Shown here piece by piece: positions 5,881 through 31,325 of a DNA stretch of 64,000 nt. Numbering within the stretch: position 1 is the first letter of the stretch; every line of letters starts with the position of its first letter. The notes beneath the pieces are model-generated. The model ran no database searches. It saw nothing but the letters and a program-made list of their open reading frames with translations, and was not told where the DNA came from. This DNA comes from an uncultured Staphylococcaceae bacterium (GTDB lineage Bacteria > Bacillota_I > Bacilli_A > ML615J-28 > CAG-313), in the NCBI GenBank assembly GCA_964507405.1, contig CAZDPJ010000001.1:10504-74503 (forward strand), given 5' to 3'. Position numbers and translations under genes: made by a program.

Positions 5881-6644
5881 AAATTTAATGTACTATACAT
5901 TTAAATCTCGATTTGTACATATTCAAATTTTTGTTAATATCAAATATAAAGTTAAAAAAAGGTAAAGTTAATTTAATCATTTTCTATAACTTAGTTTTAT
6001 CACATTTTTAAACAAATTTAATATTATTCTTAGTTTTATATGTTCATCTTATAAGAGTAAAGACTTTTAAATGATGTAATAATCTATCTAATATAGCATT
6101 AGTTAATATAGTACTCAAAAAGACTTCTCTCCCTTTAGATAAGTTTTTATTTGTAGTTAAATTTAATATTTCTTTTCATATCTTTTAACTAGAAGTTAAA
6201 ATAGTAAATTTAAGACTTCTATATTTAATGATAAAAAGCCTATTACATTGATACTTAGAATTTATTTTTTAGACTTAACAATACGTGTTGATAGCACAAT
6301 ATAAATAATACTGATAGAAATATATTATTCAGTCATACATTTTAATAGAATAGTAGAAAAAATATACTAAAGTCTATTAAAGTAGTACCCTTAGGGTCAT
6401 TATGAATACCAATATTAAGTTTATTTATAATACTTGTAATTCCACTTAGTATGTCATAAAGTATTATTATCAATTACTGGATAACTCCTATATAATTAGT
6501 TTTGTCTTAGGTTACTTCAACTAATTTCATCATGAATGTATTTTTACTGTAATCTAGCTGTATGTTTTTTGATAACACCTGAATATCGGGTAATTTTATA
6601 ACTTAAAAATGATACAAAGTATCATTGTTTAAGACATAATAAAA

Positions 6645-6665
6645 GGCTAGAATGAAATTCTAACC
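6645..6665 (-). terminator. intrinsic terminator hairpin (GGCTAGAAT-GAA-ATTCTAACC) downstream of DUF3899-like gene
   Basis: stem-loop homologous to 5450-5471 with compensatory base changes. Confidence 0.5.
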
Positions 6666-6678
6666 TTTAATATTATTT

Positions 6679-7053
6679 TTAAAAAAGCATTAATATTACT
6701 GATATAAGTAATCCTATAATTCCAACAAAAATATACATTGCGAATGAATAAGAACCCTTATGTGCAGCAGTTTTTCTTTCATTGTAATCATATAAATCCT
6801 CATAACCTTTACGATTACCAAATATTTTTGCAATTCCATATCCAAAGGTATTGAACGCACCAAGTTTTGTTACTAGTACTAATCCCCCAACAAAGATATC
6901 AACAAAGCCAGCGATAGTAAAAGCATCAATATAATTAACAAAATAATTAAATCCATTAATTATTAAATATAACAGTGAAAGAATTACGAAAATAGAAATT
7001 GATACAATATAAGTGATGGGTTTATGACAAAATAATTTTTTTAAAATATTCAT
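6679..7053 (-). CDS. small membrane protein, DUF3899-like
   Basis: 124 aa, two TM segments flanking a charged loop (NRKGYEDLYDYNERK); 2 nt downstream of oppF. Confidence 0.4.
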   Translation of the reverse strand: MNILKKLFCHKPITYIVSISIFVILSLLYLIINGFNYFVNYIDAFTIAGFVDIFVGGLVLVTKLGAFNTFGYGIAKIFGNRKGYEDLYDYNERKTAAHKGSYSFAMYIFVGIIGLLISVILMLF

Positions 7054-17858: not shown

Positions 17859-19706
17859 TTATTCTAATGTTATTGTAATTGCAGGTCTAACCGCAAGTTT
17901 AGTTGTGCAACTATACCATAGTGCTACAGTATTTACTTCTGAAGTTTCATTTTCAAGACCAACTACTACAGATATACCATTTTGATTATTATCAAATGGA
18001 GAACGAAGCATCCAGTTTGTATATCCAAAATATTCATTAGATAAATTCATAACTGCACCTTTTGCTCTTGCATAATCAGTAGCAATACAAGCTTTATTTA
18101 CATCGACTTCATCATATGAACTAATGAAGCCATTCTTTACAGATGTTGCTTGTTTATATGATAGTAAATAAACTTTATCATTTGTATTATTTGATGCATA
18201 TTTGTTATCTGTTTTAGATGATGTAGATAACGAAGAGTTATCAACTAATGTTGTATTAATATAATTCTTCTCATCACTACTAAATGCTTGATTATAGAAG
18301 TCATCATTTAGCCAGTTTCTTATAACTGAATTTTCATAATTATTAGCATATGACTTTTTACCATTTAATGTTTGTTCTTGTCCAAACACACTTGCATCTA
18401 ATGCATATTCACATAATAATTCAAGTTTACCATCTTTAGAAGTTAACACACGCCATTTAATTGGTTCAACTTTAAAGTAATAAGTTAATGAAGAAATTGT
18501 AGATGTTACATTTAAAGAACCATTTAACATATTTTGAACAGGATTATTAAATTTAGATGAAGTTGCTGGTGTTGCTTTTAGTTTAACATACTCATCACCA
18601 TTATATACACATGAATCACTTTCTTTACATAAAGCTTCTAATTCTTTAATAACATCATAATCAGTTACTACAGTTTGAGGATATCTACCAAAGTAAATAT
18701 AATTTTTACCATCTTCTTCAAATACTAAATTATCTATTACTTTTTCCCATTTAGCATATAGTGAGATATCAGTAGGTTCAGTTTGATAAATTGATGTAAC
18801 AGCATCACCTGAGAAATCACTAGTTGTATACCATCCTTTAAACTCATAGCCGAATTTAGTTGGATTTGTAAGTGAAACATTTGTTCCAATTTCATATTTA
18901 GTAGGAGCATCATATGAATTTGCACCACCATCTAAATAGTAATTAATCACTTTAACCCATTTTGCTGTTAAAACTAAATCACCAATTAGTTCATCGGAAA
19001 TAACATATAATCGTTTTCCATTTTGGTCATACCAACCATCAAATGTATAATTTTCTCTTGTAGGATTAATTAAGACAATATCATCCGTATCAATTTTATA
19101 TTCAGTAGGATTACTAGTTACTGTACCACCATCAAGTACGTAGTCAATTTTATATGTATGTAGTTCCCATTTTGCTTTTAATTTTAAGTCACCAGTTGTT
19201 CCTGTTTTAATTTCATCATATAAAGTATTTTTTAAATACCATCCCATAAAATCATAACCAGGGTTTACAGGTTCAGGTAATACATATGATTCTTTAATTG
19301 TATATTTATATGGTGGATTTACTGAAGTTGGAAAATAACCCTTAGCTAAATCATATGAAATTTCATAAGAGTATATCGCTTTATCAAATTCAGCAACAGC
19401 TTTATATGGACGGTCTTCAGTAACTTGAACAAATTGAACAAGTTCATCAGTATAATCAACATGCCATCCTTTAAATACATAAACATAACCTGGAGTTTCA
19501 CATGGCTTTTGAGGTCGATAAGTAATATCACCAGTTTTACCAATTGCTACTTTTTCAGTATGAAAAACAGTTGTTTCATCAGAATCATAATATGTTATTA
19601 CTGGGCGCTTAATATTTAAGCCAACAATTAGTAAAGTTAAACCAATAACAAATAAAACTGATCCTATAACAGTTGTTATAATAATTCTTTTTTTACTATG
19701 TTCCAT
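17859..19706 (-). CDS. membrane-anchored surface protein with 3-4 Listeria-Bacteroides (InlB B-type) repeats and C-terminal DUF6273-like domain
   Basis: N-terminal signal-anchor; repeated YxFxGWY motifs (YVFKGWH, YDFMGWY, YTFDGWY, YEFKGWY); C-term YFGRYPQ...IKWRVL...WMLRSP...VRPAI pattern. Confidence 0.6.
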   Translation of the reverse strand: MEHSKKRIIITTVIGSVLFVIGLTLLIVGLNIKRPVITYYDSDETTVFHTEKVAIGKTGDITYRPQKPCETPGYVYVFKGWHVDYTDELVQFVQVTEDRPYKAVAEFDKAIYSYEISYDLAKGYFPTSVNPPYKYTIKESYVLPEPVNPGYDFMGWYLKNTLYDEIKTGTTGDLKLKAKWELHTYKIDYVLDGGTVTSNPTEYKIDTDDIVLINPTRENYTFDGWYDQNGKRLYVISDELIGDLVLTAKWVKVINYYLDGGANSYDAPTKYEIGTNVSLTNPTKFGYEFKGWYTTSDFSGDAVTSIYQTEPTDISLYAKWEKVIDNLVFEEDGKNYIYFGRYPQTVVTDYDVIKELEALCKESDSCVYNGDEYVKLKATPATSSKFNNPVQNMLNGSLNVTSTISSLTYYFKVEPIKWRVLTSKDGKLELLCEYALDASVFGQEQTLNGKKSYANNYENSVIRNWLNDDFYNQAFSSDEKNYINTTLVDNSSLSTSSKTDNKYASNNTNDKVYLLSYKQATSVKNGFISSYDEVDVNKACIATDYARAKGAVMNLSNEYFGYTNWMLRSPFDNNQNGISVVVGLENETSEVNTVALWYSCTTKLAVRPAITITLE

Positions 19707-19812
19707 TTGTTTACCTCCAATATAAACACTTAAATTTACATTTTACTACAACATATTATACCATTAATAAAAGTTTTTATCAAGTAATAAATTCTAATTT
19801 TATTTAGATAAT

Positions 19813-19846
19813 AAAAAAAAGAAGTAAAACAAATACGTTTTACCTC
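19813..19846 (-). terminator. rplS intrinsic terminator (GAGGTAAAAC-loop-GTTTTACTTC + U8)
   Basis: read from sequence; A8 run on plus strand 19813-19820. Confidence 0.6.
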
Positions 19847-19856
19847 TTTTCTTAAA

Positions 19857-20207
19857 CTAATTACGGCGTTCTTTAATTCTTGCTGATTTAGCAGATAAGC
19901 CACGGATGTAGTTAAGTTTAGCACGACGAACTTTACCAAGACGTACAACTTCAATCTTAGCTACCATTGGTGAATGAACAGGGAAAATTCTTTCAACACC
20001 AACACCAGATGAAATCTTACGAACAGTATATGTTTCGCTAATTCCACCACCATGACGACCAATAACTAAACCTTCAAAAATTTGGATTCTTTCGCGGTCT
20101 CCTTCTTTAATTTTTACATGAACTTTAACAGTATCACCAGGACGGAATTCTGGGATGTCATCTCTCATATAAGATTTTGTAACCGCGTTAATTAATTGTT
20201 GACTCAT
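19857..20207 (-). CDS. rplS: 50S ribosomal protein L19
   Basis: [24 protein letters not shown]...KIEVVR; start moved to MSQQLIN (ORF-track start 20240 likely an upstream extension). Confidence 0.85.
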
Positions 20208-20423
20208 ATTAACACTCCTTATCTTCTGGTATTCATTCATATTTCATATCAACCTAGAATATATTAGCGGAATACCATGTTTTTTGCTATATTATTATAG
20301 CATATTTATTTTACTTTTGCAAGTCATTAATCCTTTTTATTAAGTATAACAAATATAATTACTAAAGTTTTGATTTTTTTTTATATTTATGATATCATTA
20401 TATATAGAAATGGAGGTCGTTTT

Positions 20424-21278
20424 ATGGCACTTAATATTGGAGAAGTTAATAAATTTATTGTAAAAAGAGAAACAGATATTAGTTATACTTTAAGTCCTGA
20501 TGATGATGAACTAACAACTTATGTTTTTTTACATTTTAATCAAGCAACAAGACGCCTTACTCCTGGTGAAAAAATAGATGCTTTTCTTTATTATGACCAA
20601 AAGAAACGTCTTTGCGCAACAATGGAAGCACCAATCATTACTACTCATAAATTTGATTTTGTTGAAGTTGTTGATGTACTTGAAAAAGCAGGGGTTTTCG
20701 TAAATATTGGTATTGCAAAAGACATCCTTCTTTCGAAAGATTTCCTACCAGGCAATATAAACCGTTGGCCTAAAAAAGGAGATTTCGTACCTTGTATATT
20801 AATTGAAAAAATGCATCAATTAGTAGCACGTCCAATTATTCCTCAAGATTTACATTTTAGAGAGCCATCACTAAATATAAATGATACTATATCAGGAAGA
20901 GTCGTTAAATTAAGTTCTGAAGGTATAACAATTTGTACAAGTCTTTATCAATTCGTTTATTTACATAAAAGCTATCTTCGTAAGGAATATCACATTGGCG
21001 AAGAAGTTACTTGTAAAATAATACATATTAATGAACAAGGTCATTATCATGCATCAACAATTGAGAAAAAAGAATATGCAAGACTAACAGATAGTGATAT
21101 TATCTTAAACTATTTAAAAAAATTAGGTGGTATTTTACCTCTTGGAAATGCATCAACTCCAGAAGATATTAATCGATATTTTAAAATGAGTAAAAGTGCT
21201 TTTAAAAGAGCAGTAGGCGCATTATATAAGAATAGGTTAATTTCAATTGAAGATCATAAAATAACTTTATTAAATTAA
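20424..21278 (+). CDS. CvfB/YitL-family S1-like RNA-binding protein
   Basis: start at ATG 20424 with GGAGGT RBS; ~285 aa with three S1-like segments and C-terminal winged-helix region. Confidence 0.65.
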   Translation: MALNIGEVNKFIVKRETDISYTLSPDDDELTTYVFLHFNQATRRLTPGEKIDAFLYYDQKKRLCATMEAPIITTHKFDFVEVVDVLEKAGVFVNIGIAKDILLSKDFLPGNINRWPKKGDFVPCILIEKMHQLVARPIIPQDLHFREPSLNINDTISGRVVKLSSEGITICTSLYQFVYLHKSYLRKEYHIGEEVTCKIIHINEQGHYHASTIEKKEYARLTDSDIILNYLKKLGGILPLGNASTPEDINRYFKMSKSAFKRAVGALYKNRLISIEDHKITLLN

Positions 21279-21305
21279 AAAAGTATATATTCTATCTATA
21301 TACTT
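21277..21305. terminator. bidirectional terminator hairpin (AAAAGTATATA-loop-TATATACTTTT)
   Basis: perfect 11-bp stem between convergent cvfB and protease genes. Confidence 0.55.
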
Positions 21306-21374
21306 TTTTAACCATAATATCAAATAAGAAAGATGAAGTCTGAAATTTTATATTCCACACTTCATCTTTTTTTA

Positions 21375-24300
21375 CTATTTAATTGTTACTGTTATAACCG
21401 CTTCTTTATCATTCATGCTAACTACTTTTAATTCAAAATTAGCATTTGAACCATCATACCATTTTACATTTTTGAATACATCATTTACTTGGAATAAATC
21501 ACTATTTGCACTATATTCATTTTCATTTTCAATATCGTTTCCACTATCAGCTTCAACAAGTGAAATTAGTTTATGGTTTGTAGAACTATTATTATATTGA
21601 TAAATATCCCAAATATACCATGCATCTTCAGCTTCTTTTAGAGTAGAATCTATATGATAAATTCTAATGCCTTTAGTACTAAATAATCCAGAAGAACCTG
21701 CTTCTTTTTCATTTAATCCATCAGGAGTATAGAAATCAACAATATAATATTCATCAAAGTATGTTCCATTCCAATTCTTTGGAATAATTAAACAATCGCC
21801 ACTTGAACCAAATGATTTTAAAGTAATAGTCGCACTATCTTCGCCCATTATTAGTGGTGTAACCCAACCAAGAATAGCCTTAGAGAACGCATTATGATCA
21901 CCAACATTATAGTCCATCATATCGCCTCCACCGACACCGCCATCAGGACCAGTTGAAGTATCAGTATCATAATAATCATCAAGTCCTAGTAAATGGCCAG
22001 TTTCATGAATGAATGTTTCTAAATTATATGTAGGATTATATCCAGAAGCAAATGTTTCATCAAGGAAATCATACCCCGCAAGTAAATAGAAATCAGCTTC
22101 CACGGAATCATAATATTCATAATCATCTGTCACATATTCAGATGTATATGCCCACCACATTGAATTATCATCTTCACGATTAATTTCACAGGAATATACT
22201 AAATAAATTGCGTCAATATATCCATCACCATCTGAATCATATTTACTATAATCAATCGTTGCATCATAATATGTAAGTGCAGCTTTTAGTATTTCATAAT
22301 CACCATCTTCAATTGAATCGTAATATGTAGATTTTTTACCTGTACTAAATACTGGTAACACCGTACCTGTAATATTTAAAGCACCATATGAGGCTTTTTT
22401 ATAATAACTTGCGAGACTTTCCCAACCAGTTTCAGCACTTGTTCCAAAAAAGGCAGTTTCAATATTTTTAGCCATATTAGTTGGAGCTAAATAATCAGTG
22501 AAGTCAACAGGAATAACTAGAATTGAAGGATTACCAGTTGAAGGTAGGCCTCGATTAATTCCATATAATGTATCTGTGTCTTTATCATATCCAAGTTCTT
22601 TGATAACATCTTCTAATACTTTTGTATCGGATGGTGCTTCAAATGGTTTACTTTCTTCTAGGGAGACAACAATATTAAATTTAGTTGTAAATGATTCATA
22701 TTTAACTGTTACTTCATATGTTGTTTCAACTAAAGGATTATATTCATGGATAAATTCACAATTATCGTTATTTATTTTAGTAGTTGTATTGTTAGAATAA
22801 CATAATAAAACTTCTAAGTTTTTAATGGCATCATTAAATGATGTATTAGGTTTTACTTTAATTGAAGTTAAATTAGTTTTAATTCCACTTTCTTCAACTT
22901 TTCCTTTTGATATTGTTGTATACTCAGTAATTACAATTTGACATGTATTGTGACAACTAACAACACCATTTGTTATATTAATTGTTTCACCAATAGTTAA
23001 ACTTTTTAAGATAGTAAATATTTCTGTTTTCTTATTTGAACTTACATATTTAGAAATAAATACTGTCGTTTCATTTGTTCCGTCACTAATCTTAAAACTA
23101 TTATCTTTTCCTTCTAATTGATAACTAGAAGGAAGAGAAGATATACTAACTGTTAAATTTACTAAATTACTAATATATTTATTTAAATTATTTTCGCTAA
23201 CACTTGTTAAAGTAACAGGTGTAAGTTCTATTTCATCGTTTGTATATTCTAATGAAGTAATATTGGTTAATTCAACTAAACCACTATAGGTTGTTTTTGT
23301 TCCTTTAACCGTTATACCTTTTCCAAGAGAAGCATAAGATCCAAGTAGTGAAGATTGACCACAATATACATATATTCCACCAGTATGGTCTTCAATATAT
23401 ACATTATTACCTACAACACCACAAATATATCCTTTTGTATATACTACTGTATTATCAGCTGAATTAAGTGCTTCTTCAATTGTAATTGTACTTGGAGTAT
23501 CACTAATTTCAGGTAAAGTAATTTTAACTTTACCAAAATTACTAAATTCAACTTTATAAGTATATTCCATAGTTTCATCACTTGATTTATATTCTGATGT
23601 TGCTTCTATTTTAGTAAGATAATTTTCATTTACAATTAACTTTAAAGTTTTATATGTATCATCTTCATATTCACCAATTATTAAAGATGTAACTTCATGA
23701 ACTTTAGTCATATCTTTTAAAACATATTCACCATTAACTACTTCAAATAAAGATGAATTAATAGCAGATAAATCTAAAATTAGATAACTATATAAATAGT
23801 TTTCATAATCTTCATCATCTTCAGATATAACACTATAATTATCATTATAATCGGGAATATAAACATAACCAACATTATCTTTTTCAGTAAAATATACTAT
23901 ATATGAATAATCATCATATATATAACTAACCTTTAATGTTGTTCCATCATAATCATAATAAATTATTTCAGAATTAGTTAAATCTTTAGATTGATATGAA
24001 TAAGTAAATGAATAATTAGTCATATTATCTAAGGCATCTTTTAAAGAATTTACGACAACTTCTTCTTTTTTCCAGTTAGCCACTAAAGTAATGTTACCAC
24101 TTACTGATTCATCAATACTTGTTATAAATTCACCATTTAAAGTCCAACCTAAGAATTCATAATTAGGTTTTACGGGAGTAGGAAGTTCTTCTAAACCAGT
24201 ACCAGAAACATATGTTTCCGCTGCATCAAGAGGAAGTGCACCACCATTTAATTTATAAAGAATTCTGTATGTTTTATTTAGGGTACTTTCGATTTTCGCA

Positions 24301-24578
24301 TAGAATGTTTTATCACCAGTTGCTGTTTTTTTAATTTGTGTTACTTTACTACCAGTAAAATCACTTGATTCATACCATCCAACAAACCCAGTATCATCTA
24401 GGGGAACTAAGGGAGTTACTTCACCAGAAACATATTCACTCGGTTCATGGTCAATCAAAACACCATCTACATAATATTCAATATCATAGATATTACCATC
24501 ACCATTTGTTACAACACATCCTGTAATACTAACAAATAGTATTAATAAAAATAATATACTTAAAATTTTCTTTTTCAT
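21375..24578 (-). CDS. large lipoprotein with Listeria-Bacteroides repeats and C-terminal M6-like zinc metalloprotease domain
   Basis: 1067 aa; lipobox ITGC; GWYESSDF / YEFLGWTLNG repeats; HETGHLLGLDDYYD (HExxHxxGxxD) near C-terminus. Confidence 0.6.
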   Translation of the reverse strand: MKKKILSILFLLILFVSITGCVVTNGDGNIYDIEYYVDGVLIDHEPSEYVSGEVTPLVPLDDTGFVGWYESSDFTGSKVTQIKKTATGDKTFYAKIESTLNKTYRILYKLNGGALPLDAAETYVSGTGLEELPTPVKPNYEFLGWTLNGEFITSIDESVSGNITLVANWKKEEVVVNSLKDALDNMTNYSFTYSYQSKDLTNSEIIYYDYDGTTLKVSYIYDDYSYIVYFTEKDNVGYVYIPDYNDNYSVISEDDEDYENYLYSYLILDLSAINSSLFEVVNGEYVLKDMTKVHEVTSLIIGEYEDDTYKTLKLIVNENYLTKIEATSEYKSSDETMEYTYKVEFSNFGKVKITLPEISDTPSTITIEEALNSADNTVVYTKGYICGVVGNNVYIEDHTGGIYVYCGQSSLLGSYASLGKGITVKGTKTTYSGLVELTNITSLEYTNDEIELTPVTLTSVSENNLNKYISNLVNLTVSISSLPSSYQLEGKDNSFKISDGTNETTVFISKYVSSNKKTEIFTILKSLTIGETINITNGVVSCHNTCQIVITEYTTISKGKVEESGIKTNLTSIKVKPNTSFNDAIKNLEVLLCYSNNTTTKINNDNCEFIHEYNPLVETTYEVTVKYESFTTKFNIVVSLEESKPFEAPSDTKVLEDVIKELGYDKDTDTLYGINRGLPSTGNPSILVIPVDFTDYLAPTNMAKNIETAFFGTSAETGWESLASYYKKASYGALNITGTVLPVFSTGKKSTYYDSIEDGDYEILKAALTYYDATIDYSKYDSDGDGYIDAIYLVYSCEINREDDNSMWWAYTSEYVTDDYEYYDSVEADFYLLAGYDFLDETFASGYNPTYNLETFIHETGHLLGLDDYYDTDTSTGPDGGVGGGDMMDYNVGDHNAFSKAILGWVTPLIMGEDSATITLKSFGSSGDCLIIPKNWNGTYFDEYYIVDFYTPDGLNEKEAGSSGLFSTKGIRIYHIDSTLKEAEDAWYIWDIYQYNNSSTNHKLISLVEADSGNDIENENEYSANSDLFQVNDVFKNVKWYDGSNANFELKVVSMNDKEAVITVTIK

Positions 24579-24590
24579 CTTTTTTCCTTT

Positions 24591-25091
24591 CTAGCATCCA
24601 CAATCATCGGTGCCACTTACGACATCTATTACATCGTTATTATATTTTATAAGGCTGTTATATCCATTTTCATAGACGTATATTTTTTTATAATTTTGAT
24701 TAAATAATTTTATTGCTTCTTGTTTAGCAATTGAGCCATCACTATCAATTAAGAAAATTGTTAATGATGTACTGTAATTAAGTTTCATCCATTGTCTAAA
24801 GTTTTCACTCATTCTGGCTTCATATTCTGAGTCAGATTCTGAAGTATTTCTTGTTTTATAATACTGATAACTAATAAAACCTTTTAAATGCCCTTCAGCA
24901 TATTCTTCATTTAAATTTCTTAAATCGATTGCGACAAAGCCATGTTTTTCATCAGATAAAAAATCATAATATGCATCTATATATTTCTTTCCATCATCTT
25001 CTGATATTACTTTAACTTTTTTACAACTTGTAAAACTTAAGATAATAATACTAAATACAAGTATTGTTAATAATCTTCTAATTTTGTTCAT
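24591..25091 (-). CDS. small lipoprotein, possibly rhodanese-like domain lacking catalytic Cys
   Basis: 166 aa; lipobox FTSC; 14-nt overlap with trmD stop; weak rhodanese-like pattern AIDLRNLNEEYAEGHLKGFI. Confidence 0.3.
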   Translation of the reverse strand: MNKIRRLLTILVFSIIILSFTSCKKVKVISEDDGKKYIDAYYDFLSDEKHGFVAIDLRNLNEEYAEGHLKGFISYQYYKTRNTSESDSEYEARMSENFRQWMKLNYSTSLTIFLIDSDGSIAKQEAIKLFNQNYKKIYVYENGYNSLIKYNNDVIDVVSGTDDCGC

Positions 25092-25806
25092 TTTTAATAT
25101 CCTCTAACATCTTTTTATCTTCAATAGATAAAGTGGCTTTTTCTAATATATCAGGGCGAACATTATAAGTCTTTTTAAGAGACATATAACGTTGCCATTT
25201 TTTGATATTTGCATGATGACCTGAAATTAAAACATCAGGCACTTTTTTTCCATCATAAATTTGAGGTCTCGTATATTGAGGATACTCAAGCAAATTATCA
25301 CTAAATGATTCATCTAATGGCGAATTCTCACTTATTACACCAGGAACAAGTCTACTGATGGCATCCATTATGATTCCTGCCGGCATTTCCCCTCCTGTTA
25401 ATACATAATCACCAATAGATATTTCATCATCAACATAATCTAAAACTCTAGCGTCAATTCCTTCATAATGGCCACAAATAATAACAATATGTGATTCTTT
25501 TGATAATTCTTTCGCCATTTGTTGAGTAAATACTTTACCACTAGGTGAAGTTAAAATTACACGAGCATCCTGATAATTATCTAAACTTTCAAGTGCACGG
25601 TGAATAGGGTCAACTCTGATTAACATACCAGCACCACCACTATAAGCATAATCATCGACAGTAGAATGCTTATTACCAGAAAATTCTCTAAAATTAATTA
25701 AATTACATTCTATTAATTTATTATCAATAGCTCTTTTTAAAATTGAACTATTAATTAAGCCTTCTAACATTTCGGGAAATAGCGTTAATATATCAAACTT
25801 TATCAT
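25078..25806 (-). CDS. trmD: tRNA (guanine37-N1)-methyltransferase
   Basis: 242 aa; canonical TrmD sequence (ILTLFPEM..., YEGIDARV, VLTGGE). Confidence 0.9.
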   Translation of the reverse strand: MIKFDILTLFPEMLEGLINSSILKRAIDNKLIECNLINFREFSGNKHSTVDDYAYSGGAGMLIRVDPIHRALESLDNYQDARVILTSPSGKVFTQQMAKELSKESHIVIICGHYEGIDARVLDYVDDEISIGDYVLTGGEMPAGIIMDAISRLVPGVISENSPLDESFSDNLLEYPQYTRPQIYDGKKVPDVLISGHHANIKKWQRYMSLKKTYNVRPDILEKATLSIEDKKMLEDIKNEQN

Positions 25807-26303
25807 CTTAATCCCTCTATTTCTTCAATAATAATTGAATCATCATTTATTTTTTTAATAAATGCATCAACAAAAGGAACTAGAAATTTATGATTATCTT
25901 TACTAATTTCTAGTAAATAGCCACTAGGTATTTCTATTACTTCACTAATTATACCTAATAATTCATCACAGGTATTATAAGCATTAAGACCTATTAATTG
26001 GTCAATATAATATTCATTTTCATCAAGGGGAGGAATATCTAATGAACTTGTATATATCTTCAAACCTACATTATCTAATACTTTATTAATATCATAAAGT
26101 TCATCGATTGTAATTAATACATTGCCTTTATGAAATCGAAAAGATGATACTGTATGTTCGGTATTGTTACTAAATATTATTAAAGCTCCCTTTCGAAAAC
26201 GATAATCAATAAAGTCACTTTCACTATGAACTTTAAGTTCTCCTTTGATTCCAAAGGTTCCTGTTATTTGTCCTATTAAGATTAAATCATTCTTGTTTTT
26301 CAT
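25803..26303 (-). CDS. rimM: 16S rRNA processing protein RimM
   Basis: 166 aa; IGQITGTFGIKGELKV; start ATG overlaps cadA stop by 1 nt (TAATG). Confidence 0.85.
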   Translation of the reverse strand: MKNKNDLILIGQITGTFGIKGELKVHSESDFIDYRFRKGALIIFSNNTEHTVSSFRFHKGNVLITIDELYDINKVLDNVGLKIYTSSLDIPPLDENEYYIDQLIGLNAYNTCDELLGIISEVIEIPSGYLLEISKDNHKFLVPFVDAFIKKINDDSIIIEEIEGLR

Positions 26304-28813
26304 TAGCTTTTTTTCTTTCTTTTTTTTACTTTAAAATTATAATCAAACATGATTAACATTGAATTAAATATCGCAAGTAGGGAAACACCAACATCTGAGA
26401 AAATGGCAAGCCATAAAGGTACAGGTTGTGATGGAACAAGAGCAAGAACCATTACAATTACTTTTATTGCAAGAGAGAATACAATGTTTTCATATACTTT
26501 TAATCTAGTTGTTTTAGCAAGACTAATAACTTGAGGTAATTTATTTAAATCATCACTCATAATAACAACATCAGATATGGCGATAGTCGCATCACTTCCC
26601 GTTGTTCCCATAGCAATTCCGACATCACTAGTTGCGATTGCTGGAGCGTCATTAATTCCATCACCAACAAAGATGGTTTTACCTTTTTTCGCACTATCTC
26701 TTATTTCTTGTAATTTTTCTACTTTTTCATTAGGTAATAATTCAGAATATACAGTATCAATATTTAATGTTTTCGCAACACTTTCACCAATACCTTTACT
26801 ATCACCAGTTAAAATATAGAATTTTTCAACACCTTGTTTTCTTAATTTATCGATTGCTTCTTTTGCTTCTTCACGAATAGTATCACCAATAATAACATAC
26901 CCTAAATATTGTTTTTCTTTCACAACATAAATAACTAAACCATTTGCTTCTACAACTGGTACTTCTATTTTCAAAGATTGCATTAATCTTAAATTACCAA
27001 CCACTACTTTTTTTCCATTAATTACTGCTTTCGCACCACCTTGGATGCTTGCGAAATCGGAGATTATTTCCGAATAAATATTTTCACGTCCATAATCATC
27101 AACTATTGATGACCCAATAGGATGATTGGAATAAAACTCAGTATACATTAAATTACGAAGTACTTCATCATCACTAGAAGTTTCCTCACTTACTACCTTA
27201 GTAATTTTAAATTCACCTTTAGTTAGGGTTCCCGTTTTATCAAAAACAACATTTTCAGGATTATTTAATGCTTCTAAATAATTGCTTCCTTTTATTAAAA
27301 TACCATTCTTACTTGATACCCCAATACCAAGGAAGAAACTTAAAGGAATTGAAATTACTAAAGCACATGGACAAGAAATTACTAAAAATACCATTGCGCG
27401 ATAAACCCAACTTACAACTAAATTCCAAACTCCATCAGTATAGCTTCCTAACGTAAATTGCATTAAGAACCCCGTTAAGCTACATACAAAAGCTAAGAAT
27501 AATAAGGTAGGAGTATAATATTTTGAAAACTTAGTAATGAAATTTTCAGACTTTGATTTGGAAGTTGAAGCATTTTCAACCATATCAATAATTTTAGTTA
27601 TCATTGATTCTGAATATGGTCTTATTACTTTAATTTCAATCATTTGGCCCATATTAACACTACCAGCCATAATTTCTTCATTCTTTTTTACACTTCTATG
27701 GATTGCTTCTCCTGTTAAGTTTTTAGTATCAAGTATAGCATGATTATCAAGTAAGATACCATCAAGCGGAATCATTTCCCCTTTATTAACAACAATAATA
27801 TCATCTGGTAATATACTTTCAACATCTATTTCAATGATTTCATCATTTTTCTTTAATTTAGCTATTTTAACATCTAGTTTTAATAATTCTTCAATAGACT
27901 TTCTACTCTTATTTACAGCATAATGTTGGAGCGTTTCTCCGATTTGAAATAACGCCATAACAAGGATTGCCTCAACATAATGAGTAGTGACTATCGCCCC
28001 AATACTTGCAATTGTCATCAATGAATTTTCATCAAAAAACTGACGTCGATAAAGGTTTTTAAAAAAGCGAATAATAATTGGGTACCCAATTAAAATATAT
28101 GTACATATCATTAAAACTACATGCGTTATTAAGAAACCATTAGGATCTTGATTTAAGGCATCATCATGATTAAAGATAAGTGACCAGTCTTCAAGTTTAA
28201 ATTCAATTAAAAATAACATTCCAATAACAAATGTTAAAATACCTAAGATAATTGATATTTTTCTTAAGGTATAGAAATTTTTAGTTTCTTGCTTTACAAT
28301 TTTTTCTTTATCTGTTTTTCTTGTTACAACAATTCTATCATCTACTTTATGGGAAATCTCGGTAACAAGTTCGGTAATATTTTTCATTTGTTCTTCATCT
28401 GAGCTTTCAATTATAAAACGAAAGCTTGTATAGTCAACTAATATCTTTTCATAACTAAGTGTTTTTTTAGCAATCGTTTCAATTCTTGTTGCGCAATGAG
28501 CACAATCTAGGCCGTTTAAATATAAAACATCTCGATATACTTTTTTATTTACCACTTGTTCTAACGATACTTTTTTCTCGTATTTAGCCAGTACTTTTAA
28601 TATTTTTTCTTCTATTTCACTAATTTTCTTATCAACAACTTTTTCTTTATCGTTAAACTTATATTCTAATCTTAGAATATCTTTTTCTTTATCAATTGTT
28701 ACACTTTCAACATATTTGATTTTATTTATATCATGAATTACTCTTCGTATATTTTTGGTATTTACTTTACTAATTTGATAATTTCTAATTATTTCATTCA
28801 TTTTAATCACCAC
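26303..28813 (-). CDS. cadA: heavy-metal (Cd/Zn/Co-type) translocating P1B-type ATPase
   Basis: 836 aa; two N-terminal HMA motifs GLDCAHCATRIE, CPC motif SCPCALVISIP, DKTGTLT, GDGINDAP. Confidence 0.85.
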   Translation of the reverse strand: MVIKMNEIIRNYQISKVNTKNIRRVIHDINKIKYVESVTIDKEKDILRLEYKFNDKEKVVDKKISEIEEKILKVLAKYEKKVSLEQVVNKKVYRDVLYLNGLDCAHCATRIETIAKKTLSYEKILVDYTSFRFIIESSDEEQMKNITELVTEISHKVDDRIVVTRKTDKEKIVKQETKNFYTLRKISIILGILTFVIGMLFLIEFKLEDWSLIFNHDDALNQDPNGFLITHVVLMICTYILIGYPIIIRFFKNLYRRQFFDENSLMTIASIGAIVTTHYVEAILVMALFQIGETLQHYAVNKSRKSIEELLKLDVKIAKLKKNDEIIEIDVESILPDDIIVVNKGEMIPLDGILLDNHAILDTKNLTGEAIHRSVKKNEEIMAGSVNMGQMIEIKVIRPYSESMITKIIDMVENASTSKSKSENFITKFSKYYTPTLLFLAFVCSLTGFLMQFTLGSYTDGVWNLVVSWVYRAMVFLVISCPCALVISIPLSFFLGIGVSSKNGILIKGSNYLEALNNPENVVFDKTGTLTKGEFKITKVVSEETSSDDEVLRNLMYTEFYSNHPIGSSIVDDYGRENIYSEIISDFASIQGGAKAVINGKKVVVGNLRLMQSLKIEVPVVEANGLVIYVVKEKQYLGYVIIGDTIREEAKEAIDKLRKQGVEKFYILTGDSKGIGESVAKTLNIDTVYSELLPNEKVEKLQEIRDSAKKGKTIFVGDGINDAPAIATSDVGIAMGTTGSDATIAISDVVIMSDDLNKLPQVISLAKTTRLKVYENIVFSLAIKVIVMVLALVPSQPVPLWLAIFSDVGVSLLAIFNSMLIMFDYNFKVKKRKKKS

Positions 28814-29111
28814 TAGTAAAGTTATTTATACTTGATTCAATAATTGATTTAACATTATTATTGTTAAGTGTATAATATACTTCTTTGCCTTTCTTTTCTG
28901 ATTTTAAAATTCCCGCATCTTTTAAGACTCTTAAATGATGTGAAATTGAAGGTTGACTTAGATTTATATGTTTAGTTATTTCACTAACATTAGCAACTTT
29001 ATCCATTAAATAAATAATAATTGATAATCGTGATGAATCACCCATAAGTGATAGCGTCATAGCTAACTTATCTACATTTTCAATGGTAGGCATATTCATA
29101 CTATTTTTCAC
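28803..29111 (-). CDS. cadC: ArsR/SmtB-family metalloregulator (CadC-like)
   Basis: 102 aa; HTH ...ISHHLRVLKDAGIL...; immediately upstream of P-type ATPase. Confidence 0.75.
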   Translation of the reverse strand: MKNSMNMPTIENVDKLAMTLSLMGDSSRLSIIIYLMDKVANVSEITKHINLSQPSISHHLRVLKDAGILKSEKKGKEVYYTLNNNNVKSIIESSINNFTSGD

Positions 29112-29120
29112 CCTTTCTTT

Positions 29121-29151
29121 TATATCAATATATGTTTATATATCAATATAT
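29121..29151. promoter_or_regulatory. two identical 13-bp direct repeats TATATCAATATAT spaced 5 bp apart, 10 bp upstream of cadC start
   Basis: read directly from sequence (29121-29133 and 29139-29151). Confidence 0.35.
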
Positions 29152-29207
29152 ATTATATACTATTTCACTTTTTTTTGCAAGTTAAAAAGGTACAATTACT
29201 GTACCTT

Positions 29208-30053
29208 TCAATTTTTTCTTTTAACAATTTCACAATTTCCTTTATATTTGGCATTGTAATTAATTATTTCGTCGCATTCATCAAATATAATTTTACCACT
29301 TAATGGATTTTTGATGGATATGATTTTACCAATAATACTAGCACTTACTTCACTATATTCAAACGCTAAATCACCATCAATTATTTCACAATCTACAAGT
29401 TCTAAGTTTTTTACATAACAAAGAGGCTGTGTACCAATAATTTTACATCTAACAAATTTGATATTAGATGCATACCATCCTAGGTATTCACCTTTAATCA
29501 CCGAATCATAAACAGTAACATTATTAGCATGCCAAAATGCATCTTTTGTATTAAGAGTACTATTTTTAATTTCTAAATTATTAACATACTGAAATGAATA
29601 TTTTCCTGAAAAATTTAAATTATCAATCGTAACATTATTACTTTCAAAAAATGCATATTCACTATTTACCGATGATGATTTAATTGTTATTGTATTACTT
29701 TTCCAAGAAAATTCAGCTGATGTAATTGATGAATCAACTATATTTATATTTTTACATTCACGTAATGCTTTGACCCCATTTAGTTCTGTATTATTAATTT
29801 CAATATTATTACTATACCATAAAGGAGCACGACAATTTAGAGTAAATAGTGAATCGTTGATTTGAATATTATTTACATGCCAAAAAGGATATCTTAAATC
29901 CATAAAACATTTATCAATTAAAACATTACTACTTTCTTTTAAAGCTGACTCCCCATCAGCTTCACCTTTAAATGAGCAATTAATTAAATGAATATTTGAT
30001 TCATTATATAAAGCTCTTTCTTCTTCGAATTGTTTATTTTCTATTATTTTCAT
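29208..30053 (-). CDS. DUF3737-family protein (parallel beta-helix repeats)
   Basis: 281 aa with repeated ~22-aa N/V/I-rich units (YPFWHVNNIQI, WYSNNIEI, FWHANNVTVYDS, GEYLGWYASNIKFVRC, GTQPLCY) resembling DUF3737. Confidence 0.5.
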   Translation of the reverse strand: MKIIENKQFEEERALYNESNIHLINCSFKGEADGESALKESSNVLIDKCFMDLRYPFWHVNNIQINDSLFTLNCRAPLWYSNNIEINNTELNGVKALRECKNINIVDSSITSAEFSWKSNTITIKSSSVNSEYAFFESNNVTIDNLNFSGKYSFQYVNNLEIKNSTLNTKDAFWHANNVTVYDSVIKGEYLGWYASNIKFVRCKIIGTQPLCYVKNLELVDCEIIDGDLAFEYSEVSASIIGKIISIKNPLSGKIIFDECDEIINYNAKYKGNCEIVKRKN

Positions 30054-30098
30054 ATATCACCTATTTAAAAAATTATCCGGTCTCCCAGATAATTTGAT

Positions 30099-30362
30099 TT
30101 ACTCAATACTTGTAAATTCTACCGTAACATGTTGTTCATTACGTGTTGCGGCAGCATGAGTTAAAGTTCTAATGGCACTCGCTACTCGACCATGTTTGCC
30201 GATTATTCTACCAAGATCATTGGGATGTACTTTTACAGTAACAGCTAATTCATTATCACTTGCTGTTTCTACTAGAACAACTACCTCTGATGGGCGAGTT
30301 ACAAGTGGCTTAACTAATCCTCCAACTAATGTTTCGTAATTAATATCAGCCATAAAGTTCAC
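30099..30362 (-). CDS. KH-domain RNA-binding protein (YlqC-like)
   Basis: 87 aa; GRIIGKHGRVASAIRTL KH motif; directly downstream of rpsP. Confidence 0.75.
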   Translation of the reverse strand: MNFMADINYETLVGGLVKPLVTRPSEVVVLVETASDNELAVTVKVHPNDLGRIIGKHGRVASAIRTLTHAAATRNEQHVTVEFTSIE

Positions 30363-30638
30363 CTATTTAGTAGTGTTTTCTTTATTCGCAAACTTAGCTA
30401 TAATGCCTTCTTTTGATAATAAAGATTTTACAGTATCAGTAGGTTTTGCACCATTATTTAACCAACCTAATACTTTTTCTTCATCGAATTTTACAGTAGC
30501 AGGAGTAGTTAAAGGATTGTATGTGCCAACAATTTCAATAAAACGACCATCACGTGGGTTTCTTGAATCAGTTACAACTATACGATAAAATGGTTTTTTC
30601 TTAGAACCAAATCTTTGTGATCTTATTTTTACAGACAT
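30363..30638 (-). CDS. rpsP: 30S ribosomal protein S16
   Basis: 91 aa; [22 protein letters not shown]. Confidence 0.9.
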
Positions 30639-30680
30639 ATTATAATCCTCCTTATGTTCTTTTTTATTAAATCCTCAAAT

Positions 30681-30709
30681 ATTATATCATAATAAGCAAT
30701 AGCTGTCAA
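30681..30709 (-). promoter_or_regulatory. sigma-A type promoter TTGACA-17-TATAAT for rpsP, embedded in a 12-bp-stem hairpin that terminates the upstream ylbE-like gene
   Basis: minus-strand TTGACA (30704-30709) and TATAAT (30681-30686); hairpin ATAGCTGTCAAG/CTTGACAGCTAT 30699-30730. Confidence 0.5.
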
Positions 30710-30726
30710 GTTAAAAGGCTTGACAG

Positions 30727-30963
30727 CTATGAATTTAAATATTTTAACATTCCACTAATAAAATCAACTTGTTTTTTAAAGTTATTAATCTTATCATATG
30801 TCGTTAATTTTAGATTTACTTTTACTTCTTTTTCATATTCACTATATGCATCTGGATTATCATTTAAAATGATATACCATTTAGGATGATATCTTAAATA
30901 CGTTAAATATAAATCATTTTGATATAATTTATCTAATACATCTTGTCTCATTAATCCCACCAA
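30727..30963 (-). CDS. YlbE-like small protein
   Basis: 78 aa; YHPKWYIILNDNPDAY pattern resembling B. subtilis YlbE; overlaps ylbD-like gene by 13 nt. Confidence 0.45.
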   Translation of the reverse strand: MVGLMRQDVLDKLYQNDLYLTYLRYHPKWYIILNDNPDAYSEYEKEVKVNLKLTTYDKINNFKKQVDFISGMLKYLNS

Positions 30964-31325
30964 CTATTATAATTTGCATTATATAAGCCACCACTTGGTT
31001 TTCCACTAAATGTTTGGGTTATTTGTAATACTTTTTGAACCGTGTTTAATGTTTTACTAATCGAATCTGGATTTATTTTTTTAACATAACCCCATATATT
31101 TTTTAAATTTTCTGATGAAAGTAAGTCTTCAAGTTTTTTGTTATCTGTTTGTTTTATGCCTTCTTTTTCATATTTTTTCCACGATTCATCGTTTTCTCCT
31201 ATTATTACCCAATCTTCATATATTGATTGCCATGTCTTAGTTCCGCTTAAGACCTCATTTCTTACTAGTGGATGCTTAGAAACAAATTCTCTAAATTCAT
31301 TCATTCTACTTGCCAAATAAATCAC
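30951..31325 (-). CDS. YlbD-like putative spore-coat protein
   Basis: 124 aa; FREFVSKHPLVRNEV...WQSIYEDWVIIGENDESWKKY matches YlbD family pattern. Confidence 0.5.
   Translation of the reverse strand: MIYLASRMNEFREFVSKHPLVRNEVLSGTKTWQSIYEDWVIIGENDESWKKYEKEGIKQTDNKKLEDLLSSENLKNIWGYVKKINPDSISKTLNTVQKVLQITQTFSGKPSGGLYNANYNSWWD

Follow-up and report, generated by a model that had tools for sequence, protein, structure and literature searches.

The gene trmD is essential in most bacteria (and an antibiotic target), rimM is needed for normal assembly of the 30S subunit, and the expression of both is usually tied to ribosomal protein genes. (In E. coli, the "trmD operon" is rpsP-rimM-trmD-rplS.) What, then, transcribes these genes if the gene for a heavy-metal pump lies directly in front of them? 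This question is raised by a 64,000-nucleotide stretch of DNA from an uncultured Staphylococcaceae bacterium (contig CAZDPJ010000001.1 of assembly GCA_964507405.1), which we will call the window. In the window, rimM and trmD follow the genes for an ArsR-family regulator and a P-type ATPase, and both pairs sit between rpsP and rplS, which encode ribosomal proteins.

We assigned the genes of the window to families using Pfam and NCBIfam. (The assignment of S16 was taken from L025, an annotated locus that is 99.9% identical.) The cluster runs on the minus strand from 30709 to 19814, and features are on that strand unless we state otherwise. It begins with rpsP (ribosomal protein S16; 30363-30638; Ribosomal_S16, PF00886, on L025) and khpA, or ylqC, which encodes a KH-domain RNA-binding protein (30099-30353; KH_KhpA-B, PF13083, 71 bits vs. 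a cutoff of 32). After a hairpin comes a DUF3737 gene (29208-30053; PF12541, 362 bits), and after another hairpin and a predicted promoter come a gene for a 98-amino-acid (aa) winged-helix regulator of the ArsR/SmtB family (28803-29099; NF033788, 83 bits vs. a cutoff of 55; PF01022), which we will call arsR, and a gene for a P1B-2 (ZntA/CadA-type) ATPase (26303-28801; TIGR01512, 459 vs. 313, and TIGR01525, 515 vs. 346). These are followed by rimM (25803-26303; TIGR02273, 125 vs. 66), trmD (25078-25806; TIGR00088, 299 vs. 195), a gene for a 166-aa lipoprotein with a rhodanese domain (24591-25091; PF00581, 37.4 vs. 22.2), a gene for a 1067-aa M6-like lipoprotein (21375-24578; M6 model TIGR03296, 104 bits vs. 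a cutoff of 110.8, E = 1.3e-29), and a terminator. Last come a convergent cvfB-like gene on the plus strand (20424-21278; CvfB_WH, S1_2, and CvfB_1st) and rplS (L19; 19857-20207; TIGR01024, 155 vs. 91), which has its own predicted promoter. By our open reading frames (ORFs) and family matches, all of the genes named in the initial annotation of this DNA, which was made from the sequence alone, are where it had placed them.

The core genes rpsP, khpA, rimM, trmD, and rplS are all present, with their order and strand kept. They are not contiguous: six other genes fill two gaps, which span about 3.8 kb from khpA to rimM and about 4.9 kb from trmD to rplS. Both interruptions had been noticed in the initial annotation (at 3.6 and 4.8 kb, which are slight underestimates), and both are real, in the window and in its relatives. 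Overall, we regard the cluster as a variant trmD operon, all of whose genes belong, as ordinary members, to known families.

We consider it likely that the cluster is an old, vertically inherited remodelling, that rimM and trmD depend on the arsR/ATPase promoter and on read-through, and that the regulator is blind to metals. In more detail, an rpsP-khpA-(ylqD)-rimM-trmD-rplS cluster would have been remodelled in a deep clade of gut Bacilli. Foreign genes would have been added at two places where the ancestor, to judge from B. subtilis, already had signals for transcription: behind the khpA terminator (a regulator of the ArsR type and a P1B-2 ATPase of the Zn/Cd type, and also DUF3737 in the species of the window and its nearest sampled relatives) and before the rplS promoter (the rhodanese-fold lipoprotein, the M6-like protease lipoprotein, and the inverted cvfB). 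rimM and trmD would lie on an arsR-ATPase-rimM-trmD-lipoprotein(-M6) mRNA that starts at the arsR/ATPase promoter, and read-through from the rpsP promoter, over two moderate hairpins, would add to their transcription. If so, then a clade of gut bacteria transcribes rimM and trmD behind a heavy-metal pump and from a promoter that was ancestrally regulated by zinc. The general significance is modest: all of the gene families are known, and the rearrangement is at joints that exist in B. subtilis.

Transcription of rimM and trmD

We compared the window to loci L001, L002, L014-L016, and L025-L033, which, with the window, represent ten lineages in three subclades. These loci were found by scanning one genome per GTDB species for a TrmD pattern, by scanning metagenomes for RimM, and by searching for proteins similar to TrmD. 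The promoters and terminators that we describe are consensus matches or fold predictions in an AT-rich genome.

The region downstream of khpA is covered in nine lineages (the window, L002, L014, L016, L027, L029, L030, L031, and L033). In all nine, a hairpin with a T-run comes after khpA, and then, either directly or past DUF3737, a promoter-like match of the sigma-70 type with a 17-nt spacer. The hairpin in the window (T1, 30067-30094 with its T-run, 30071-30094 for the fold itself) resembles an intrinsic terminator, with an 11-bp stem and a T-run (-12.4 kcal/mol, z = -2.8). Four loci share the window's hairpin sequence, differing only in the loop bases and in a stem pair that changes from G-U to A-U; the remaining hairpins have unrelated sequences. 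A second terminator-like hairpin is found 3' of DUF3737 (T2, 29185-29209; -12.9 kcal/mol, z = -3.6; one scan listed it on the plus strand). Just beyond T2 is the predicted promoter of the arsR-ATPase-rimM-trmD unit, TTGCAA-17-TATAAT (29152-29180), which was identified by a consensus scan and by comparison to relatives. The -35 box is TTGAAA in L031 and TTGAAT in L030, and the -10 box is TATTAT in L029; otherwise, both boxes match those of the window. This is the only promoter that is conserved between khpA and trmD. The unit would end at T3, a strong terminator hairpin beyond the M6-like gene (21329-21369; -20 kcal/mol, z = -5.5).

We also looked for promoters inside the ATPase gene: six lineages were searched over the last 800 nt before rimM, and eight were searched across the entire gene. 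Neither search found a conserved promoter. Because the arsR/ATPase promoter is conserved and no internal promoter is, the best-supported inference is that rimM and trmD would be reached by transcription that starts at the arsR/ATPase promoter and crosses the ATPase gene. The initial annotation had proposed that these genes are driven, at least partly, from a metal-responsive cadC promoter, a view that a constitutive promoter inside the ATPase gene, just before rimM, would have undermined. No conserved promoter of that kind appeared in these six to eight lineages, and the choice of promoter is a reasonable one. The "metal-responsive" part is unsupported for this organism, as the regulator has lost its metal ligands (see below).

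A possible but less likely explanation is that rimM and trmD are transcribed mainly by read-through from the rpsP promoter, with only a minor role for the arsR/ATPase promoter. This is how B. subtilis does it: in its ylxM-ffh-rpsP-ylqC-ylqD-rimM-trmD-rplS cluster, a terminator lies directly after ylqC, and rimM-trmD transcripts arise by read-through past that terminator (PMC10100781). T1 is in the same position as the B. subtilis terminator. Furthermore, the predicted rpsP promoter in the window is a perfect match to the sigma-70-type consensus (TTGACA-17-TATAAT with TG, 12/12, at 30681-30709), and T1 and T2 are only moderate in strength. T1 must leak, since the 45 nt that separate khpA from DUF3737 contain no promoter, and DUF3737 would be reached by read-through from the rpsP promoter. 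T1 is probably a leaky attenuator, and read-through from the strong rpsP promoter probably contributes to the transcription of rimM and trmD. But in the organism of the window, the polymerase would have to pass two hairpins in series, and in every lineage that covers the region, a dedicated promoter has been kept after the hairpin, which would be unnecessary if read-through sufficed. As to the suggestion that rpsP-khpA is now terminated separately, all of the clade members with coverage do have a terminator-like hairpin there, but DUF3737 needs read-through of T1. (The upstream ylbE-like gene has a terminator hairpin at 30699-30730, with -17.5 kcal/mol and z = -6.2, and the -35 box of the rpsP promoter, TTGACA, falls within its 3' arm. 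This is a very compact overlap of a terminator and a promoter.)

It is less probable still that rimM and trmD have a constitutive promoter of their own in the 3' end of the ATPase gene, in which case the fusion to the pump operon would have no regulatory consequence. There is one candidate, TTCAAT-16-TATAAT (9/12) at 26336-26363, which ends 32 nt before the ATG of rimM and recurs only in L001. However, its -35 box agrees with the consensus at just 3 of 6 positions, L002 has TATCAT for a -10 box, and there is nothing comparable in L027, L029, or L030. The other matches in the ATPase gene track amino-acid motifs that are conserved, and synonymous changes break them in relatives. (Specifically, we rejected candidates at 27795-27822 and 28410-28437, whose hexamers fall on codons for the conserved motifs VES..DDII and VDY..FII and are broken by substitutions in other lineages.) We still favor transcription from the arsR/ATPase promoter, with a share of read-through.

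The genes of this unit are tightly packed. arsR and the ATPase gene are 1 nt apart, the stop codon of the ATPase gene (TAA) and the start codon of rimM (ATG) overlap as TAATG (26301-26305), rimM and trmD overlap by ATGA, trmD overlaps the small lipoprotein gene by 14 nt (25078-25091), and another 12 nt separate that gene from the M6-like gene. The last two distances are as given in the initial annotation. So is TAATG, which is correct for the window but is not the general form. The junction (26301-26331) is an A-rich tail of A8-G-A3-G-A7 that ends in TAATG and contains a weak Shine-Dalgarno sequence, AGAAAG. In L025 and L026, which are 99.9% identical to the window, the first run is A7 instead of A8, and the ATPase stop codon lies 17 nt into rimM. 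An overlap of 1-17 nt is constant across the sequences examined, and the TAATG form is strain-specific. (With A9 in the first run of this tract, at 26306-26331, the ATPase would be fused in frame to RimM.) Similarly, trmD overlaps the next gene at every clade locus that extends beyond it.

Does this imply that translation is coupled? Overlapping or abutting stop and start codons, as in coupled gene pairs, are found both at ATPase/rimM and at trmD/next gene. Relatives have good Shine-Dalgarno sequences for rimM within the ATPase tail (AAGGAG, AAGGAGG, or GAGGT), compared to the weaker AGAAAG in the window, so independent initiation of rimM is equally possible. Coupling to rimM is possible but would not be required. 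The initial annotation had asserted coupling to both rimM and trmD. The overlaps on which it relied are conserved, but overlap by itself does not justify so strong a claim.

The ArsR-family regulator and its metal site

If the arsR/ATPase promoter transcribes rimM and trmD, are these genes controlled by metals? In the initial annotation, zinc or cadmium would release an ArsR/CadC repressor and so induce the pump and rimM-trmD together. There are reasons to suspect this: an ArsR-family gene, an operator-like element that overlaps the conserved promoter where transcription would start, and the gene for a Zn/Cd-type pump immediately before rimM. The genes that had been called cadC and cadA are indeed in the gap between khpA and rimM, along with DUF3737. 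But "cadC" is a misnomer for an ArsR/SmtB-family gene without the cysteines of CadC.

We examined the metal-binding residues. CzrA and SmtB are zinc sensors of the ArsR/SmtB family that bind zinc at an alpha5 site and repress an efflux operon. The zinc ligands in CzrA are D84, H86, H97, and H100. The regulator in the window has the same winged-helix ArsR fold (it matches the CzrA chains with E ~1e-10), but it has asparagine at three of these positions (D84N, H86N, and H97N, from alignment to solved CzrA chains) and serine at the fourth (H100S, from a MAFFT alignment, with the tail of CzrA confirmed by the chain sequence). In other words, the alpha5 set D-x-H...H-x-x-H is absent. Nor does it have a thiolate site like that of CadC, which is impossible because there is no cysteine among its 98 residues.

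As in two of the closest analogs, the CzrA/CzrB system of S. aureus and the SmtB system of cyanobacteria, the regulator gene is the first gene of the operon, before an exporter, and there is an AT-rich repeat operator at the promoter. Unlike in those systems, the four ligand positions of the protein in the window are occupied by Asn, Asn, Asn, and Ser, and it has no Cys. Also, the exporter is a P-type ATPase and not a CDF transporter as in CzrA/CzrB, and essential housekeeping genes lie downstream in the unit. The CadC-CadA system of the S. aureus plasmid pI258 shares the pairing of a regulator with a P1B-2 ATPase, encoded by nearly abutting genes. However, the N-terminal and alpha3 cysteines of CadC (its alpha3N site, Cys7, 11, 58, and 60) have no counterpart in the regulator, the match to CadC is weak (1u2w, E = 6e-5), and the locus in the window is chromosomal and ancient instead of plasmid-borne.

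Relatives of the window vary in their regulators. Close relatives L001 and L016 have likewise lost the alpha5 ligands. In L029, L031, and L033, the regulator gene is absent but the promoter is retained. On the other hand, the CzrA-type alpha5 set is complete in the more distant L027 (D, H, H, H) and also in L030 (D, H, H, C), so metal control is plausible in those relatives and in the ancestor. (In L002, the copy of arsR, at 6594-6872, lacks two internal segments, around LSLLGDSSR and VSEIT, compared to its close relative L016. This could be a decaying gene or an assembly artefact.)

The regulator in the window is not itself a pseudogene or a decaying gene, because it is conserved like its neighbors (it is 71% identical to its ortholog in L001, vs. 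68-76% for RimM and the ATPase) and because it keeps the recognition helix, SQPxISHHLRxLK. The operator-like element, which we identified by comparing intergenic regions, is an AT-rich repeat just 3' of the -10 box (29121-29151), with two copies of ATATATTGATATA around a conserved core of TATATAAACATATAT. In L027, the element is near-palindromic (TATAAACATATGTTTATA). The core (ATATAAACATAT) is absent in L029, L031, and L033, which lack arsR.

We conclude that the regulator in the window is no CadC and that, in this organism, it probably does not sense metals. With no cysteine, with the alpha5 ligands replaced, and with no regulator at all in three related lineages, metal-responsive control of rimM and trmD is unsupported in the organism of the window, and induction by zinc or cadmium is improbable there. 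Such control does seem plausible in relatives of the L027 or L030 type. We suggest instead that the ancestral protein was a zinc-sensing repressor, that the metal site was lost on the branch leading to the window, and that the gene was lost in at least two other lineages. As the operator and the DNA-reading helix are kept and the canonical ligands are not, the regulator would most likely be a simple autorepressor that keeps expression at an even level, and not a metal switch. The losses would fit with selection against metal-dependent control once essential genes relied on the arsR/ATPase promoter.

Several points weigh against our explanation. First, the promoters and terminators are predictions, and promoter-like matches are near chance overall (99 were found and 87 were expected). 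Second, the weak match 32 nt before rimM, which is the only candidate near that gene, could be a promoter. Third, a metal-blind repressor might over-repress essential genes, and the size of the read-through share bears on this. Fourth, the regulator could sense a ligand via a non-canonical site. Finally, the ancestral presence of arsR rests on a midpoint-rooted neighbor-joining tree of nine taxa.

These loci form a natural series in which to ask how essential genes cope with being captured by an operon that is expressed conditionally, with the sensor intact (L027 and L030), metal-blind (the window, L001, and L016), or deleted (L029, L031, and L033). They are also a warning for annotation: a pair described as "ArsR/CadC next to CadA" is not automatically metal-responsive.

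The pump itself seems to be intact. P1B-2 ATPases are recognized by CPC in transmembrane helix 6, N-x7-K in helix 7, D-x-G in helix 8, and an N-terminal CxxC. The ATPase in the window exceeds the cutoffs for this subfamily and has the full set of signatures, including N-x7-K (NIVFSLAIK) and D-x-G (DVG), which we read in the last two helices of its translation. CAHC (in the HMA domain), CPC, DKTGT, and GDGIND are intact in every clade ATPase examined. Judged by these motifs, it is a P1B-2 (ZntA/CadA-type) pump of the Zn/Cd type. The best match of solved structure is ZntA from Shigella/E. coli (4umv, E = 4e-87), with which it shares CPC, N-x7-K, D-x-G, and the N-terminal CxxC. Unlike ZntA, it has an extra HMA-like N-terminal domain that is free of cysteine, and its gene is embedded in a ribosome-maturation cluster. 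(In L028, the ATPase gene appears as ORFs of 81, 129, and 574 aa. We rejected pseudogenization, because the gene is interrupted by scaffold gaps filled with N and is intact, at 811 aa, in the sister contig L029.)

Age of the gene order and its breakpoints

The TrmD scan of genomes found two metagenome-assembled genomes with 83% identity in TrmD and the gene order of the window, and the RimM scan of metagenomes found three further contigs (L014-L016) with the same order. Among the best 120 protein matches listed for TrmD, identity declines gradually from 100% to 68%, and those that we sampled are all in the clade. An intact ATPase gene overlaps rimM in all ten lineages and in every context that we looked up (L025-L033). 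What does not vary in the clade is a core of ATPase, rimM, trmD, and the small lipoprotein; the M6-like lipoprotein is usually next, and wherever a contig extends beyond the lipoprotein genes, convergent cvfB and then rplS follow. The core genes are non-contiguous in all clade relatives.

These lineages are quite diverged. The subclades are only 53-57% identical to each other over the ATPase, RimM, and TrmD (in a neighbor-joining tree), and S16 falls to 71-77% identity in L029 and L030, the most divergent members compared. As an outgroup, we used 19 loci from distant bacteria (including Lachnospiraceae, Nitrospirae, Actinomycetota, and metagenome contigs), which keep rpsP-khpA-(rimM)-trmD adjacent. 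(We sought nearer outgroups, but our pattern scans of genomes and metagenomes gave nothing between about 68% and 33% RimM identity.) Because the order is kept across divergent lineages and distant bacteria keep the genes adjacent, the arrangement is an old, inherited gene-order variant of one clade of uncultured, low-GC gut Bacilli. This settles whether it is strain-specific, as the initial annotation had asked: it is lineage-wide, and none of the clade relatives that we examined has the uninterrupted operon. A search of the literature on rimM or trmD and heavy-metal P-type ATPases turned up no paper that describes rimM-trmD behind such a pump.

ArsR-ATPase pairs are often mobile elsewhere, but a recent, strain-specific horizontal insertion of the metal cassette is ruled out, to near certainty, by the presence of this arrangement in ten lineages whose proteins are as little as 53-57% identical and by uniform GC content (0.23-0.33 across the whole window, with no compositional step at the inserts and no foreign-DNA signature), and the ORFs of the region include no integrase, transposase, or flanking repeats. 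All of the clade loci have 27-30% GC.

DUF3737 has a narrower distribution. Among loci that cover the position, it is present in the window, L025, L002, L014, and L016 and absent in L027, L029, L030, L031, and L033. Between DUF3737 and the arsR promoter, two sister species, L014 (6239-7184) and L016 (6479-7189), have an extra 0.7-0.95 kb with ORFs of 108-126 aa, whereas the window and L002 have 100-190 nt there. The DUF3737/arsR joint keeps accepting DNA.

The breakpoints are also informative. In B. subtilis, besides the terminator directly after ylqC, rplS has a separate promoter and a monocistronic transcript (PMC10100781). Both of the clade's insertion points coincide with these joints (the terminator after ylqC and the promoter before rplS), and the first insert is in place of ylqD. 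Like the operons of B. subtilis and E. coli, the cluster in the window has the same core genes in the same order and orientation, with the ATGA overlap of rimM and trmD; and, like B. subtilis, it has a terminator or attenuator right after the gene for the KH protein, and a monocistronic rplS unit with its own predicted promoter. Unlike in B. subtilis, there is no ylqD, ffh and ylxM are not upstream, DUF3737, arsR, and the ATPase gene (about 3.8 kb) separate khpA from rimM, two lipoprotein genes and the inverted cvfB (about 4.9 kb) separate trmD from rplS, and a dedicated predicted promoter precedes the ATPase-rimM-trmD part.

Because the breakpoints coincide with signals that are already present in B. 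subtilis, the split is less radical than the initial annotation claimed. It had described a universal, contiguous operon. Distant bacteria do mostly keep the genes adjacent, but the joints pre-exist in B. subtilis, and the genes are also apart in several unrelated genomes. In four outgroup loci, trmD and rplS are separated, by 0.9-2.1 kb in L004, L010, and L012, and with no rplS within 10 kb in L003. In L022 (8930-9918), an unrelated metagenome contig, rimM-trmD come after a 143-aa ORF that looks ylqD-like by eye. These genes lie behind an ABC-transporter operon that is divergent, and rpsP-khpA was not found within the 9 kb upstream. L022 is an independent break at the khpA/rimM joint.

The lipoproteins and the rplS leader

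The small lipoprotein gene, whose product matches the Pfam rhodanese family in L025, L028, L029, and L031 as well, has a detectable or syntenic ortholog without a recorded Pfam match in L027, L032, and L033. We aligned six divergent orthologs. In the rhodanese loop (FLIDSDGS; we placed it by eye, according to the fold), an invariant Asp stands in place of the catalytic Cys, so the protein has the domain of a rhodanese sulfurtransferase and not its catalytic residue. The C-terminal D-C-x-C (codons at about 24594-24605) is invariant, and its C-x-C contains the only conserved cysteines. This end could be an extracytoplasmic tail that is metal- or redox-active, near a zinc pump and a zinc protease.

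The M6-like lipoprotein contains HETGHLLGLDD at residue 858, and HExxHxxGxxD is kept in all five of the orthologs that we compared. Its zinc motif and its match to the M6 model resemble those of Bacillus InhA. Unlike InhA, it scores just under the curated cutoff (104 vs. 110.8), and it is a lipoprotein whose long N-terminal region consists of repeats, of the Listeria-Bacteroides kind. The gene is missing in L031 and shorter in L032. Sequence searches found no relatives with solved structures for either lipoprotein.

It is conceivable that the ATPase, the C-x-C lipoprotein, and the M6 protease form an extracytoplasmic unit for zinc delivery, from pump to acceptor or chaperone to client. The invariant core would then be a functional unit and no accident, and the synthesis of RimM and TrmD would be tied to zinc handling. 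We consider this to be a long shot. If it were true, then the recurrent losses, whether of the regulator or of its metal site, would record how a stress operon was domesticated by the essential genes that depend on it.

Beyond the lipoprotein genes, rplS has a predicted promoter (TTGCAA-17-TATAAT with TG, at 20294-20322, from the consensus scan) and a terminator (19814-19853; -17.9 kcal/mol, z = -6.5). Between this promoter and rplS is a structured 5' leader (20208-20290) that is conserved in five loci. Its nucleotide sequence is almost identical in the window, L014 (16312-16396), L016 (16994-17078), L027 (16030-16114), and L029 (17670-17754), and the stem, UGGUAUUC/GAAUACCA, has compensatory changes in L029. 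No Rfam model, including those for the L19 leader and riboswitches, reached the gathering threshold anywhere in the window, and none matched with E <= 1 over 19600-31100. The leader may be a lineage-specific autoregulatory leader for L19.

On the 3' side of rplS is a gene for a 615-aa membrane-anchored protein (17859-19706, minus strand) with Flg_new repeats and a DUF6273 domain. It shares its repeats with the N-terminal part of the M6-like lipoprotein, and the two genes flank rplS in all of the relatives whose contigs extend that far.

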